Assembly (NCBI GenBank): GCA_002347655.1
Contig: DDWR01000009.1
Coordinates: 861 to 64,860, forward strand
Length of the DNA stretch: 64,000 bases
Reading direction: 5' to 3'
From: Verrucomicrobia bacterium UBA2281
GTDB taxonomy: Bacteria; Verrucomicrobiota; Kiritimatiellia; CAIQIC01; Lenti-01
This document shows, one piece after another, positions 1,394 to 52,139 of the stretch; within the stretch, counting starts at the first letter, position 1; every line of letters starts with the position of its first letter. Under the pieces are notes generated by a model. That model worked only from the letters and a program-made list of their open reading frames with translations. It searched no databases and was not told the DNA's origin. Made by a program: the position numbers and the translations under genes.

Positions 1394-2133
1394 GGCGTGC
1401 CTCCTTTCGCGCCGGCCGGCACGGCCAGCGGAATCACCGCCGTCGCCTTCGCGGCCCGGTAGGGCTGCCACGCCTCCGCGCACAGCCGTTCGCGCTCAGG
1501 ATCCGGAGCGGCGGCCGCCTTGCGGAGCTGCGCGCGCGCCTGCGCCTCACGCTCCGGCACCGCCGCCTGCGTCCGCAAATCCACCACCAGCGCTTCGCCT
1601 GCCCCAGAAGCCGGCTCCAGCACGAAAGCTTCGTCGAAGAATCCCAGTAGCAGGGGCCGGCGCACGCGCCACGCGACGCCGCGCTGCGCCCGGTCCGCCA
1701 AGGCCAGCGCATTGGCTTCGCGCACGAGATGTCCCGGCAAGCCCAGATGGCAGCGCAGGACCGGAGGTTCCGTGTCGTCCGCCGCGACGACGATCGTGGC
1801 AAACCGGTCTTCCCCGCGCAGTTCGGGTTCATAGCCCGTCGCGCCTTCGCCGGCGGCGGCGATGTCCGCCCGCGCCTTCGCGACGAATGCCGCCGGCGTT
1901 TCCGCCGCGGCGCGGCGCTTGGCCCCGCGCTCGAAAATGAAGGCGTACGCCGCCACGGCGCCGTTCAGATCATACAGCGGCACGTCGTCCGCCGCCGCCC
2001 ATTCCCCCGGATAGAACCGCGGCAGTTCGGCTTCCGCCGCGCGAAACGCGTCGTCCCGCGCCACCGGCGCCGCCGGCGCCGCCAGCGCCCAGCCCAACGC
2101 CATTCCCGCGATCGCCCAACCCAACGCCTTCAT
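1390..2133 (-). CDS. Secreted protein resembling the streptopain propeptide/Spi (I69) inhibitor domain
   Basis: Internal start MKALGWAIAGMALGWALAAPAAP (signal peptide) with AGGAGG upstream. PLYDLNGAVAAYAFIF and RFATIVVAADDTEPPVLRCHLGLP match the I69 pattern (..FvIvSaDdr.p.iLgYs..G). Translationally coupled to the peptidase. Confidence 0.5.
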   Translation of the reverse strand: MKALGWAIAGMALGWALAAPAAPVARDDAFRAAEAELPRFYPGEWAAADDVPLYDLNGAVAAYAFIFERGAKRRAAAETPAAFVAKARADIAAAGEGATGYEPELRGEDRFATIVVAADDTEPPVLRCHLGLPGHLVREANALALADRAQRGVAWRVRRPLLLGFFDEAFVLEPASGAGEALVVDLRTQAAVPEREAQARAQLRKAAAAPDPERERLCAEAWQPYRAAKATAVIPLAVPAGAKGGTP

Positions 2134-2272
2134 GCCCCGCCTCCTGGTTTTGCCGCTTCGGGCCATGCCGCGCCCAAACCGCACCCACAGGGTGCGCCGC
2201 GGCCCAAACCGGGTCAAGGAGATAGCGCGGAAAAACGCGCTTGGACTTTCTCGGATCAAGCCCCGCGGCGGC

Positions 2273-3388
2273 TCAGCCCACCCGGCGATAGACGTCCCAG
2301 GTTTGGCGCGCGGTTTCTTCCCAGGTGAATTTCTTCGCCTGGTCGAAGCCGGCGGCGCGCAGGCGCGCGGCGCGGGCGGAATCGTTCAGCACGGCGCGGA
2401 CGGCCGCGGCCCAGGCTTCGACGTCGAAGCCGTCCACCCATTCGGCGGCGTCGCCGAGCACTTCGGGCAGGGAGCTGTGGCGCGCGGACACCACCGGCGT
2501 GCCGCGGCCCATCGCCTCGAGCGGCGGAAAACCGAAGCCTTCGTAACGCGTCGGAAAGACGAATGCCGCGGCCCCGGCGTAGAGCGCCGAAAGTTGCGCA
2601 TCGCTCAGGTGCTTCAAGAGCTTGATCCCGTCCCGGCGCGGCGAATCGGCAATGGCCTTCAGCGTGGGGCCGGTCTTCCAGCCGAGGCCGCCGGCCAGCA
2701 CCAGGTCGCCGTCGAAGTCCCGCAGTGCTTCGTAGATTTTCACGAGGAACGGGATGTTCTTGCGCGGCTCGATCGTGCCGACCATCAGCAGGTACGGCTT
2801 TTCCAGTCCCAGCGCCTGGCGCGCGGCCGCGACGGCTTCCGGCGCGGGCGGCGGCCCGAACTGCGGCAGGCCCAGCCACACGGGAAACACTTTCGATTCC
2901 GGCACCTTCAGCAGTTCGACGATTTCGCGTGCCGAGAAATGGCTGTCCGTCAGGATCGCGTCGGCGCGTTCGGCGGTGGCGTGGATCTCCGCGGAGAGCC
3001 AGGCGAGATTCTTGGCTTCCGTCGTCTCGGGCATGCGCAGGAACGACACGTCGTGGATGGTCACGACGGATTTCCGGCCGCGCCCGAGCGGCGGGCGGAT
3101 GAAGTTGGGAAAGTGGTAGAGATCGGCCTTCCCCGCGAACCATTCGTAGGGCGGAAACCCGAGGCGTTTCCACGCGGCCTGCGCGACGCGCCCGGGCATC
3201 CAGCGGCACGAGCGCATTTCCACGCCCGGCGGAACGGCGTCCAGTCCGATGCGCTTGAAGTCGAAGTAGAACGCCGCCAGCTTGTCCGCGCCCTTTTCCG
3301 CCCCCAGGTGGAAAAGCAGTTCGCGCACGTAGCGGCCGACGCCCGCACGCTGGCCCAGCGCCGCCTGGATGTCCATGCAGACCTTCAT
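2273..3388 (-). CDS. Glycosyltransferase family 4 (GT-B, Glycos_transf_1)
   Basis: 371 aa. Motifs GVGRYVRELL, LLMVGTIEPRKN and FVFPTRYEGFGFPPLEAMGRGTPVV are typical of GT4. Confidence 0.9.
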   Translation of the reverse strand: MKVCMDIQAALGQRAGVGRYVRELLFHLGAEKGADKLAAFYFDFKRIGLDAVPPGVEMRSCRWMPGRVAQAAWKRLGFPPYEWFAGKADLYHFPNFIRPPLGRGRKSVVTIHDVSFLRMPETTEAKNLAWLSAEIHATAERADAILTDSHFSAREIVELLKVPESKVFPVWLGLPQFGPPPAPEAVAAARQALGLEKPYLLMVGTIEPRKNIPFLVKIYEALRDFDGDLVLAGGLGWKTGPTLKAIADSPRRDGIKLLKHLSDAQLSALYAGAAAFVFPTRYEGFGFPPLEAMGRGTPVVSARHSSLPEVLGDAAEWVDGFDVEAWAAAVRAVLNDSARAARLRAAGFDQAKKFTWEETARQTWDVYRRVG

Positions 3389-3519
3389 CGCACCCCTTTA
3401 TACCGCAGCGGCGGCAAAAGATGAAGCGCCGCGTGCATTCCGATCTCAATCCGCGGATGCCCGTTCCCCCACGCTGTGGAACATCCACATGTCGCACTCC
3501 GGGGGCGCCGGCCAACAAT

Positions 3520-3547
3520 AACTATAGTATTTGCAACTACTATAGTT
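3520..3547. promoter_or_regulatory. Perfect 9-bp inverted repeat AACTATAGT-N10-ACTATAGTT in an AT-rich divergent intergenic region (candidate operator)
   Basis: Read directly from the sequence. A related direct repeat of TTGCAAC(T/C)AC lies at 3531-3540 and about 3585. Located between divergent genes 2273-3388(-) and 3702-4721(+). Confidence 0.35.
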
Positions 3548-3701
3548 TTCGGGCCCGAAACCAAACCAATAATAGTTGCAACCACCAGAGGTTTGGCCTT
3601 CCTTGCTGAAACGTGACTTCGGTGTTTACGGCACCGTCCGCCGCGATGGACTTGCACGTTCTTGGATTGTGTTTTTTCGCCTGCTTTTGCATCCTGCTCT
3701 C

Positions 3702-4721
3702 ATGGACGAAGCCCCGCAACAACCGCCACCGACCGGACGGAAAAAGATCCGCCTGACGAAATCCGAAGCCTACGCCATGCAGCTTTCGTCGCCCCGGAAA
3801 AAGCGCATCGCGTTCGGCGCAGTCGGACTGGCGATTGCCGCCGCGCTCGCCGCCGCGCTGTGGCATTTCCAGGATGGATGGCTGCCCTACTGGCTACCGG
3901 AAAAGGCCGAAACCGCACCGGCCGACGCGCCGGAAACCGCGCCGGTCCCGGCAGCCGCCCCAACGGCTCTCTCACTTCCGGCCGCAATTGATCCGGCCGC
4001 TCCGGCCGAAGCCCCGGCCACGCTGGACTTCTTGACGGCCACGGTCTGGGACCATCCCGAGTTTCTTCGCGGCGTGCGCCTGTTCAACCAGGCGCTCGAC
4101 CGCTACCGCGCCTACCAGCGCGACGGCCGACCGCGCGAACTGTTGCAACAGATCGACGACGGCGCGCTACAGGCCGCCGCCGCGTTCGGGAAACTCCGCG
4201 CAGAGGCGCCCGCCGGCGTGCCGCTGGCCGAATACGTTCGGCGCAGCCATACGTTGGCCCAGGCCGCGCGCGACCTGGCCCGGCCCGCCGTTGCGCCGGC
4301 GCCCGCGGCGACGGCCGCGGTCCCGCCGGCGCGCCCGCGGCCCACGGCGCCGCCGCCGAAAGCCGGCGAAGCCTGGCAAGACCCCGACTATCTGGAAGGC
4401 GCCCGCCTATTCAACCAGGCGCTGGCGCAGTACCAGCAGTTCCTCGCGGACAAATCGCGCCTGGCGTTGCTGGCCGCCATCGAAGAAACCGCGTTCCAGG
4501 CCGTGAAAAAGTTCGAAGCGCTGCAAGGGCTGGCCCCCACGAACGTGCCGTTGGGAGACAATATTTCCCAGTGCTACCGCCTGATCAGCGACTGCCGCCG
4601 CCAGAATCTGGAAGCCGGCGGCGCCGGCCCCGGCGGAACAGATCACGACGGCGGCGCGCGCGGCAAGGTCGTGGGCCCCAACCGCCGCCCCGCCCTGCCC
4701 GCCTACCAGCCGGCGCCATAG
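3702..4721 (+). CDS. Membrane-anchored hypothetical protein with two tandem copies of a W.DP(E/D)(F/Y)L.G.RLFNQAL helical domain
   Basis: The tail of ORF 3576-4721 is coding-like. One TM helix (IAFGAVGLAIAAALAAALW). The internal duplication is visible in the protein. Start is uncertain (3702 or 3777). Confidence 0.55.
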   Translation: MDEAPQQPPPTGRKKIRLTKSEAYAMQLSSPRKKRIAFGAVGLAIAAALAAALWHFQDGWLPYWLPEKAETAPADAPETAPVPAAAPTALSLPAAIDPAAPAEAPATLDFLTATVWDHPEFLRGVRLFNQALDRYRAYQRDGRPRELLQQIDDGALQAAAAFGKLRAEAPAGVPLAEYVRRSHTLAQAARDLARPAVAPAPAATAAVPPARPRPTAPPPKAGEAWQDPDYLEGARLFNQALAQYQQFLADKSRLALLAAIEETAFQAVKKFEALQGLAPTNVPLGDNISQCYRLISDCRRQNLEAGGAGPGGTDHDGGARGKVVGPNRRPALPAYQPAP

Positions 4722-4815
4722 AACTTTTCCGGCTTGTGGCGGCGGACCCCGTCGGGGACCGGCAGAAGCAGAACAAGAACCGGACCGGCCTCCGCGAGGC
4801 TGGCTGCAATCCCCA

Positions 4816-6045
4816 TCAAATGCGCGTGCCGGGCGGGATGACGGCATTTTTCGGAATGACGATCACGCCGTCCTGCACGGTATAGAGATCGGTGACGACG
4901 TCGGCCTTGCCGTCGGGCGTGACGTAGCAGCCGTCGCCGATGCGCGCGTTCTTGTCGACGATGGCGTTGCGGATGAAGCAGTCGCGGCCGACGCCCATCG
5001 GAATCTCTTCCGGAGACAGATCCTTGGGATCGTAGTAGTCCGCGCCCATCATGACGGTGTGCTCGATCACGCTGCCCTCGCCGACCTTGGCGCGGACGCC
5101 GATGATGGACCGCAGGATGCGATGGCCGCTGATGATGCAGCCTTCGCTCAGCAGCGCGCGGTTCAGGTCGCAGCCGTTGATCTTGGACGGCGGCAGATAG
5201 CGCATGTGGGTGTAGACCGGCGCGTTGGCGTCGTAGAGGTTGAACTGCGGCAGCGGCTCGGCCAGCTCCATGTTCGCCTCCCAGAACGCGCGGATCGTTC
5301 CGATGTCGCGCCAGTAGCCGTCGAACAGATAGCGGTAGACCGCGCGGTTCTGGATGGCCGCGGGAATGATGTTCTTGCCGAAATCCTTGGCGTCGTTGTC
5401 CAGCAGTTCCAGCAACACCTTCGTGTCGAACACGTAGATGCCCATGCTGGCCAGATAGCGCTCGGGGCCGGGACCGGGCTCGCGCAGCTCGTCGAGCTGC
5501 GGCGTGTCGCCGGGCTTTTCGACGAAGCGCACGATGCGGTCCTGGGCATCGGCCTGCATGATGCCCAACGCGCCGGCTTCGGCGCGCGGCACCGGCTTGG
5601 TGCAGATCGTCACTTCGGCTTTGTTGCGGACGTGCTCCTCCAGCACCGGGCGGAAATCCATCTGGTAGAGCTGGTCGCCCGAAAGAATGACGACCTGGTC
5701 GGGTTGCCGGTCGAGGATGTAGCGCAAGCCCTGCCGCACGGCGTCCGCCGTGCCCTGGAACCAGGTTTCGCTGCCCGGCGTCTGCTGCGCTGCGAGGATC
5801 CGCACGTACCCGCTGTGGAACTGGTCGAAGACGTAGGTGCCCTGCACGTGCTGGTGCAGCGAGACGCTGTTGAACTGCGTCAAGACGTAGATGCGCCGGA
5901 TGCCGCTGTTGATGCAGTTGCTGACGGGAATGTCCACTAGGCGGTACTTGCCCGCCAGCGGAACCGCCGGTTTGCACCGGTCGCGCGTCAACGGCTGCAA
6001 TCGCTTGCCTTCCCCTCCGCCCAACACCACGCCGACCACGTTCAT
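4816..6045 (-). CDS. glgC: Glucose-1-phosphate adenylyltransferase
   Basis: 409 aa. Motifs VLGGGEGKRLQPLTRDRCKPAVPLAGKYRLVDIPVSNCINSG and FVEKP, plus the C-terminal left-handed beta-helix region. Confidence 0.95.
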   Translation of the reverse strand: MNVVGVVLGGGEGKRLQPLTRDRCKPAVPLAGKYRLVDIPVSNCINSGIRRIYVLTQFNSVSLHQHVQGTYVFDQFHSGYVRILAAQQTPGSETWFQGTADAVRQGLRYILDRQPDQVVILSGDQLYQMDFRPVLEEHVRNKAEVTICTKPVPRAEAGALGIMQADAQDRIVRFVEKPGDTPQLDELREPGPGPERYLASMGIYVFDTKVLLELLDNDAKDFGKNIIPAAIQNRAVYRYLFDGYWRDIGTIRAFWEANMELAEPLPQFNLYDANAPVYTHMRYLPPSKINGCDLNRALLSEGCIISGHRILRSIIGVRAKVGEGSVIEHTVMMGADYYDPKDLSPEEIPMGVGRDCFIRNAIVDKNARIGDGCYVTPDGKADVVTDLYTVQDGVIVIPKNAVIPPGTRI

Positions 6046-51673: not shown

Positions 51674-51702
51674 AACGAAAAGCCCCGCCGACGGCGGGGC
51701 TT
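51674..51702 (-). terminator. Rho-independent terminator forming the riboswitch expression platform
   Basis: Minus strand: AGCCCCGCC-GTC-GGCGGGGCT followed by TTTCGTT. Confidence 0.7.
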
Positions 51703-51732
51703 TCCCAAAGCTCCCGCCACCGAAACCTTCGG

Positions 51733-51792
51733 CGACAGGAGTCATCAGTCCGGGCAACCCGAACGGTTCGGCGGGGGACTCCATCCCCTTGC
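51733..51792 (-). promoter_or_regulatory. Candidate fluoride riboswitch aptamer (crcB motif)
   Basis: Minus strand: GGGGAUGGAGUCCCCC GCCGAACCG UUCGGGUUGCCCGGA CUGAUGACUCCUGU. P1 is GGGG/CCCC, the pseudoknot is GGAGUC/GACUCC, and the hallmark is CUGAUGAnnCCU. Confidence 0.6.
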
Positions 51793-51802
51793 AACGAGAG
51801 CA

Positions 51803-51831
51803 GATATCCCCCAAACGACCCCGACATGCAA
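51803..51831 (-). promoter_or_regulatory. Candidate promoter TTGCAT-N17-GATATC driving the riboswitch leader
   Basis: Read on the minus strand. The -10 ends about 14 nt before the aptamer. Confidence 0.35.
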
Positions 51832-52063: not shown

Positions 52064-52139
52064 GCCAAAGTAGCTCAGCTGGCAGAGCACCGCATTCGTA
52101 ATGCGACGGTCGTCGGTTCGAATCCGACCTTTGGCTCCA
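52064..52139 (+). tRNA. tRNA-Thr (anticodon CGU)
   Basis: Hand-folded. Acceptor GCCAAAG/CTTTGGC, D arm GCTC..GAGC, anticodon loop TTCGTAA, T arm GTCGG-TTCGAAT-CCGAC, encoded CCA, then a T-run. Confidence 0.93.

Follow-up and report, generated by a model that had tools for sequence, protein, structure and literature searches.

A predicted fluoride riboswitch and its expression platform upstream of a cation/proton antiporter gene in an uncultured bacterium

The window considered here is a 64,000-nucleotide stretch of contig DDWR01000009.1 (assembly GCA_002347655.1, positions 861 to 64,860) from Verrucomicrobia bacterium UBA2281, an uncultured, GC-rich bacterium. On its minus strand, the leader of an operon encoding a cation/proton antiporter very probably carries a fluoride riboswitch that acts as a kinetic transcriptional ON switch. 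The leader comprises a fluoride (crcB-motif) aptamer and two hairpins, termed H1 and H2, followed by a short relic open reading frame (ORF) that separates the switch from the antiporter gene. A first-pass annotation, made by reading the DNA alone, had proposed the riboswitch, a terminator/antiterminator mechanism and the nature of the downstream genes. The motifs that it quoted were all recovered on the minus strand where it had placed them, both by reading the sequence and by locating them with a script.

The aptamer, its homologs and its cargo

The whole window was scanned against all 4227 Rfam families. Three matches rose above gathering, namely two tRNAs and RF01734 (Fluoride), and no other riboswitch class did so anywhere in the 64 kb. 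The RF01734 match covers the full model (1-64) at minus-strand positions 51797-51729, with a score of 40.7 bits (E = 7.9e-08) against a gathering score of 34, so the proposed fluoride riboswitch withstood the covariance-model check. The Rfam score was lowered because P3 is longer than the consensus, with 7 bp and a UUG loop. A custom covariance model, R1, gave the same aptamer 58.2 bits. The architecture is that of the crcB motif, with P1, P3, a pseudoknot between the P1 loop and the 3' tail, and the conserved GAUGG...CUGAUGAnnCCU (Table 1). The near-invariant core (GAUGG in the P1 loop and CUGAUGA..CCU) is complete, and its columns are invariant in the 17-sequence seed. The match is far beyond chance and, at the level of sequence, confirms this segment as a true fluoride riboswitch aptamer that is predicted to bind its ligand. 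The fluoride riboswitch, or crcB RNA motif, was reportedly described by Baker et al. in 2012; the window aptamer adds one instance to a class known since then, and knowledge of the class itself is unchanged.

Homologous leaders were collected from antiporter loci, of which genomes and metagenomes supplied 80 each and the surroundings of the closest proteins another 12. Antiporter homologs number in the thousands; the closest, at 92-93 % and ~74 % identity, are metagenomic, and the nearest named ones carry the labels Opitutae and Lentisphaerae on metagenome-assembled genomes (MAGs). R1 was built from 17 aptamers found by a regular expression and then run on all loci, with the pseudoknot left out of the search model; the curated Rfam model confirmed the aptamer in all 16 key relatives that were re-tested. 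An alignment of 84 homologous aptamers was examined for covariation against 500 column shuffles as a control. Paired cells make up 96.4 % of those in P1, P3 and the pseudoknot. Changes on both sides occur in 190 cells, compared with 54.6 in the shuffles, none of which (0/500) reaches 190. The signal collapses once partners are slid by 1-3 columns. Pairing amounts to 96.7 % in P1 (three of four pairs compensatory), 91.2 % in P3 (four of four) and 99.4 % in the pseudoknot, where three pairs are compensatory and GC is exchanged for AU in 28 sequences. The P1 and pseudoknot helices, for which the first-pass annotation had named a lack of covariation as grounds for dismissal, thus passed this check.

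The gene behind the leader belongs, as had been proposed, to a cation/H+ antiporter class listed as fluoride-riboswitch cargo (PMC11139923). Its product matches Na_H_Exchanger (PF00999) over residues 10-381 (E = 6.3e-37, 127.7 bits, cut-off 26.2) and CBS (PF00571; E = 1.6e-10, 41.6 bits, cut-off 24). In an NCBIfam scan of this protein, the CPA-type matches all stayed under their cut-offs and no equivalog was reached. Among the 159 antiporter loci whose upstream sequence spans 250 nt or more, an aptamer lies within 400 nt upstream on the same strand in 86 (at least 54 %); in five further loci it is more distant, with another gene in between. A 2024 review, which cites the original 2012 description of the fluoride riboswitch, ranks Na+/H+ antiporters as the next most common associated genes after exporters and notes that enolase is often present in such operons (PMC11139923). 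Because of this background and the leader-antiporter association in relatives, the window is regarded as an ordinary case of an established kind of regulon. It shares with the RF01734 class the position in a 5' leader and the Na+/H+ antiporter cargo, with enolase, crcB, DUF190 and ClC genes as cargo in relatives, and ON logic would be expected. The CBS-domain antiporter is thereby marked as belonging to the fluoride stress response of an uncultured bacterium that, judging by the MAG labels of its nearest relatives (Opitutae, Lentisphaerae, Verrucomicrobiota), is probably a member of the PVC group. To our knowledge, it is still unexplained why Na+/H+ antiporters accompany fluoride exporters, and the present antiporter subfamily, with its aptamer at no fewer than 54 % of loci, is a good candidate for addressing that question.

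Hairpins, folding energetics and the proposed switch

Two hairpins follow the aptamer. Within H1, CUCCUGUCGCC (51741-51731) pairs with GGUGGCGGGAG (51721-51711), and the first four nucleotides (CUCC, 51741-51738) double as the 3' strand of the pseudoknot. The full hairpin has an energy of -22.3 kcal/mol; with the pseudoknot bases unavailable, 10 bp are left, at -12.5 or -12.7 kcal/mol. H1 is not a good terminator in the window because only CUUUGGG, with three U residues, follows it. The core of H2 consists of AAAGCCCCGCC (51703-51693), the loop GUC and GGCGGGGCUUU (51689-51679). At -23.7 kcal/mol and with the tail UUUUCGUU, H2 has both the GC-rich hairpin and the U-run of an intrinsic terminator. 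A third helix, the proposed antiterminator, would pair the 3' arm of H1 and the adjoining spacer (51718-51707) with the 5' arm of the terminator (51703-51693). Its energy is -16.6 to -18.1 kcal/mol, and the pairing as first proposed is lengthened by a 5-bp inner stem.

Folding of the leader is consistent with a coupling of these helices. The unconstrained minimum free energy (MFE) structure contains P1, P3, H1 and H2, and the antiterminator is absent from this free state. With the aptamer locked, the antiterminator becomes the MFE structure for transcript 3' ends from 51695 to 51686. The stabilities in the window form a ladder, from full H1 (-22.3 kcal/mol) through the antiterminator (-18.1) to truncated H1 (-12.7), and the same order holds in 9 of 13 two-hairpin leaders. 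In all seven two-hairpin relatives of the window's clade, the locked-state fold pairs the 5' arm of H2 with the 3' arm of H1.

The leader would begin at a promoter directly upstream of the aptamer. In eight related leaders, a TTGC(A/G/T)T element with an A/T-rich hexamer behind it lies as far upstream of P1 as in the window, and both hexamers are kept in the 92-93 % relative, which has GATATT in place of GATATC. TTGCAT/GATATC is accepted as the likely promoter, and the transcription start is placed a few nucleotides upstream of the aptamer. A simple consensus scanner called neither this promoter nor H2. It missed the promoter because the -10 element lacks a T at position 6, and it missed H2 because the terminator stem absorbs part of the U-run. 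Since the rules of the scanner are rigid, its silence was not taken as absence, and folding and conservation were used instead. A terminator-like hairpin, CGCGGCGGCCGCCGCG, followed by TTTATCC, occupies 51854-51839 of the minus strand directly upstream of the -35 element, and might shield the riboswitch promoter from transcription that arrives from upstream.

In the mechanism proposed here, RNA polymerase would start a few nucleotides ahead of the aptamer. As long as fluoride is absent, the 3' strand of the pseudoknot (GACUCC) would be free, and its CUCC would nucleate the 14-bp H1 (51741-51711). H1 would hide GGCGGGAG, H2 would form, and transcription would stop ahead of the genes. Fluoride, bound through Mg2+, would lock the pseudoknot, and H1 would lose four base pairs. 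The 5' arm of H2 would then invade the weakened H1 (about -12.6 kcal/mol) to give the antiterminator GGCGGG(A)GCUUU/AAAGCCCCGCC (about -17 to -18 kcal/mol), and the polymerase would read on into the relic ORF and the antiporter gene. H1 would thus act as an anti-antiterminator that relays the state of the aptamer to H2.

The usual RF01734 terminator overlaps the aptamer directly; in the window it does not, and an intermediate hairpin would relay the signal. This relay logic is not new, because an ON-type variant (subtype 2) of the flavin mononucleotide (FMN) riboswitch is already known to use a platform made up of a terminator, an antiterminator and an anti-antiterminator (PMC6298564). As proposed for the window, three helices are mutually exclusive in that platform, and the bound aptamer blocks the anti-antiterminator so that the antiterminator forms and readthrough follows. 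The FMN variant has a different aptamer class and ligand, and its anti-antiterminator uses the P2 strand, whereas that of the window would use the 3' strand of the pseudoknot.

Table 1. Features of the antiporter leader and operon, and differences from the 92-93 % relative L081
Feature	Position	Strand	Composition or basis	Differences from L081
Putative promoter	51831-51803	minus	TTGCAT 51831-51826, 17-nt spacer, GATATC 51808-51803	7 substitutions/29 nt, hexamers kept (promoter region)
5' leader				3/14 nt
Fluoride riboswitch aptamer (crcB motif)	51797-51729	minus	Rfam RF01734 match, own model, covariation	2 substitutions/51 nt; one makes P3 U.G into C-G
P1	GGGG 51788-51785 with CCCC 51776-51773	minus	Read from sequence	
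Pseudoknot, 6 bp	P1 loop GGAGUC 51782-51777 with GACUCC 51743-51738	minus	Read from sequence	
P3	GUUCGGG 51764-51758 with CCCGGAC 51754-51748	minus	Read from sequence	
Conserved CUGAUGACUCCU	51748-51737	minus	Read from sequence	
H1, proposed anti-antiterminator, 14 bp	51741-51711	minus	CUCCUGUCGCCGAA-GGU-UUCGGUGGCGGGAG	
Rest of H1				2/27 nt: 51734 C>U, 51719 U>C, both pair-preserving
Proposed antiterminator, 11 bp, one bulged A	51718-51693	minus	GGCGGG(A)GCUUU-GGG-AAAGCCCCGCC	
Terminator H2, 13 bp	Hairpin 51705-51677, tail to 51674	minus	GGAAAGCCCCGCCG-UCG-GCGGGGCUUUUC, plus GUU	2/32 nt
Linker from H2 to relic ORF				9 substitutions + 13 indel columns/63 nt
Small GC hairpin	51638-51624	minus	GCCGGG-AUG-CCCGGC, directly 5' of relic ORF Shine-Dalgarno	
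Relic ORF, 35 codons (MKAKIQSIAAMEILDSRGNPPVRGRLALDNGGAEG*)	51610-51503	minus	Enolase codons 1-31 fused in frame to DUF190 tail	13 substitutions + 33 indel columns/108 nt
Regulated gene, 565-aa cation/proton antiporter with C-terminal CBS region	51498-49801	minus	Pfam	

Platforms of related leaders and competing explanations

The expression platforms of 56 distinct aptamer-bearing antiporter leaders were classified. Fifteen have two hairpins, 13 a direct terminator and four a distal terminator without H1; the 24 without a recognizable terminator presumably use translational platforms or terminators that the script cannot see. Two hairpins as in the window occur in L081-L083, the 92-93 % relatives, and in L171, an Opitutae-labelled MAG, and H2 itself is conserved in L081 and L171. 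L172, L168 and L170 share the topology with different H2 sequences. L084 has, in addition to H1, a second terminator-like hairpin analogous to H2. Three stages can be distinguished in this series: H1 with a U-run (L085); H1 with a U-run together with H2 (L084 and L081); and H1 without a U-run followed by H2 as the terminator (the window, L171, L172 and L168). This graded series among close relatives offers a natural data set on how transcriptional riboswitch platforms are rewired.

The complementarity that underlies the antiterminator is clearest outside the window's clade. In the low-GC two-hairpin leaders L022, L043, L097 and L098, only 2-5 of 1000 shuffles match it, and the pairs co-vary between unrelated low-GC lineages (GGGUAGAAGU/ACUUUUACCC in L043 and GGGGUAGG/CCUACCCC in L022). 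This non-random, co-varying complementarity indicates that the relay architecture is real in the fluoride riboswitch family.

For the window, several observations weigh against the proposed switch. Composition-matched shuffles do as well as the window antiterminator in 22 of 200 and 135 of 1000 cases; since the tests are not significant in the GC-rich clade, statistical support for the helix is not claimed there. The truncated 10-bp H1 can still form and has to be displaced. At full length with the aptamer locked, the terminator state is favoured (-38.0 vs -28.3 kcal/mol). The nearest relatives L081 and L084 have five to seven U residues after H1, so that H1 may be, or may have been, a regulated terminator. 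Finally, the promoter hexamers are weak by the E. coli consensus (6/12). Because the terminator wins at full length even when the aptamer is locked, the switch can act only kinetically; kinetic control is usual for transcriptional riboswitches. The terminator/antiterminator switch of the first-pass annotation is plausible: it agrees with the energy ladder, the locked-state MFE and the significance in other lineages, and in the window's own clade its complementarity is no better than that of shuffles. The window shares the topology and energetics of the relay, the helix itself is a candidate in the GC-rich clade, and operation of a relay in the window is judged moderately probable.

An alternative is a direct-terminator arrangement, of which Bacillus cereus crcB is a classical example, with H1 as the regulated element and H2 as a second, independent or leaky terminator or attenuator. 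Such an arrangement is found in L085-L087, where a hairpin that starts with CUCC and is homologous to H1 is the sole hairpin; it is followed by UCUUUUGUUU, acts as a classical direct terminator and competes with the locked pseudoknot, as H1 would in the window. The U7 after H1 in L084, the UUUUU in L081 and the shuffle results for the clade also fit this alternative. In the direct type, however, the hairpin carries the U-run and terminates, whereas the window H1 has lost its U-run and the second hairpin terminates; the tail CUUUGGG is poor, and L171, L172 and L168 likewise have no U-run after H1. A strong, unregulated H2 (-23.7 kcal/mol plus a U-run) downstream would, moreover, make the switch pointless, and the energy ladder and locked-state folds favour a coupling of H1 and H2. 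Control through H1 as a direct terminator is considered unlikely in the window.

Steric control resembling the "tug-of-war" riboswitches was also considered, in which the bound aptamer and upstream structure would suppress H2 through the polymerase exit channel, with no antiterminator helix. A 2026 preprint reports that structures shortly before a terminator generally suppress termination and that synthetic fluoride versions work (bioRxiv 10.64898/2026.06.17.733018); H1 ends 5 nt before H2. Tug-of-war riboswitches, however, have a spacer of less than about 5 nt and no intermediate helix, with the aptamer within about 5 nt of the terminator as the mechanism needs, whereas in the window the aptamer ends at 51738 and the H2 base follows about 30 nt farther downstream, with H1 and a short spacer between them. 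H1 also lies next to H2 whether or not ligand is bound, and its stability is greater in the ligand-free state; this predicts no switching or the wrong polarity. Steric control was rejected for the window on spacing and polarity and is regarded as very improbable.

An alignment of the window with L081 covered the stretch between the -35 element and the beginning of the antiporter gene (Table 1). Divergence is 4-7 % in the aptamer, H1 and H2, with pairing preserved, and 21-43 %, including indel columns, in the promoter spacer, the untranslated linker and the relic ORF. This pattern, seen in the alignment, indicates that the aptamer, H1 and H2 are under purifying selection and that the relic peptide is not. 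It bears on the possibility that the riboswitch is itself an inactive relic, decaying like the enolase/DUF190 fragment after an operon rearrangement. The operon has suffered large deletions, and nowhere in the 64 kb could a gene for a fluoride exporter be detected, as such decay would allow. All conserved aptamer positions are nevertheless intact, the aptamer, H1 and H2 evolve 3-10x slower than the flanking leader and relic ORF, and the same leader drives crcB-DUF190-antiporter in L171. That the riboswitch is dead is accordingly judged exceedingly unlikely.

A broader interpretation of the favoured relay is that it represents a distinct, recurrent architecture, derived from a direct terminator via a "double-terminator" intermediate, and that the relic ORF has been kept since its translation, through coupling or protection from Rho, is required for antiporter expression. 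This extended interpretation is held only tentatively and is somewhat doubtful. The relay platform, the graded series and the chimeric relic ORF are details of modest interest.

The relic ORF and neighbouring genes

The ORF between the switch and the antiporter had been described in the first-pass annotation as enolase-derived. The derivation holds for codons 1-31, of which 17/31 are identical to the corresponding codons of the intact L168 enolase, including EILDSRGNP; the ORF is a 35-codon deletion relic and not an enolase gene. Residues 5-31 match positions 1-27 of Pfam Enolase_N with E = 1e-4; the shortness of this match keeps it under the cut-off, and the NCBIfam eno match is also below its cut-off. 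An assignment as enolase was rejected, since it would require full Enolase_N and Enolase_C (~425 aa) and only residues 1-27/31 are present. In L171, a DUF190 gene (816-1175) precedes the antiporter, and the 3' end of that gene is homologous to the last ~22 nt of the relic, including its stop codon and the 4-nt spacer. These homologies to an enolase start and a DUF190 end identify the ORF as a chimeric deletion remnant of an ancestral enolase and DUF190 operon, which probably also had crcB.

A gap of 4 nt separates the relic stop codon from the antiporter ATG, and the antiporter ribosome-binding site, GGAGGG, lies inside the relic ORF. The Shine-Dalgarno sequence of the relic ORF itself, AGGAG (51623-51619), is contained in AGGAGCAG (51623-51616, minus strand). 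The counterpart in L081 (3941-4018) has about 10 enolase and 14 DUF190 codons, is in frame and likewise ends 4 nt before the antiporter ATG. In both lineages the frame stays open all the way from the enolase start codon, preceded by its Shine-Dalgarno sequence, to the stop codon of DUF190. This kept frame, in two lineages only, is a hint that translation through the gap may be selected for, via coupling or avoidance of Rho polarity. L081 and L171 also have a hairpin at the place equivalent to 51638-51624, which could be a stabilizing or processing element.

Long overlapping ORFs cover the window leader on both strands in this GC-rich DNA. A protein-coding reading of the leader was rejected, both for a 142-aa ORF (51931-51503, minus strand) and for calls of 83-118 aa in L081-L083; none has a Pfam match. 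Gene calls extend over leader and relic in L081 (3640-3996) and L082 (3745-3996). Such calls are considered spurious because conservation follows RNA helices rather than codons and because there is no Pfam match. A correctly delimited fluoride riboswitch is thus added where ORF callers place spurious "hypothetical proteins".

Searches of the 64-kb window gave no match to crcB, DUF190 or ClC-F genes, and no intact enolase was found in it. Among the fetched relatives, enolase sequence is present only in L101 (far upstream), L168 (intact) and L100 (cut short). In L168, the leader is followed by an M20 peptidase gene, the intact enolase and the antiporter, and in L137 by a ClC-like gene and the antiporter. 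The low-GC, unrelated metagenome contig L100 (2280-5226) has an aptamer and antiporter followed by a frameshifted enolase N-terminal pseudogene (about 3994-4170), which breaks off beside a transposase-like ORF of 335 aa (4219-5226).

Some loci carry more than one aptamer. L100 has a second one at 111-170; L107 has two, at 1598-1664 and 2976-3042, one before and one after the antiporter; and L041 has two back to back in divergent orientation, at 3456-3524 (minus strand) and 3715-3784 (plus strand). In two MAGs labelled Desulfobacterales/Syntrophobacteria (L040 and L054), the aptamer and the antiporter are separated by an ORF for a dynamin-like GTPase with the motif GQFKRGKST (2093-3940 and 3301-3975, respectively). 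We know of no earlier instance of this class as fluoride-riboswitch cargo.

A tRNA-Thr (CGT) gene (52064-52139, plus strand) lies divergently upstream of the window leader, and a divergent tRNA gene also precedes the leader in L081 (3551-3623), L171 (38-110) and L084 (3218-3290). Downstream, genes for an EamA protein, a histidine kinase and a response regulator are syntenic with those in L081.

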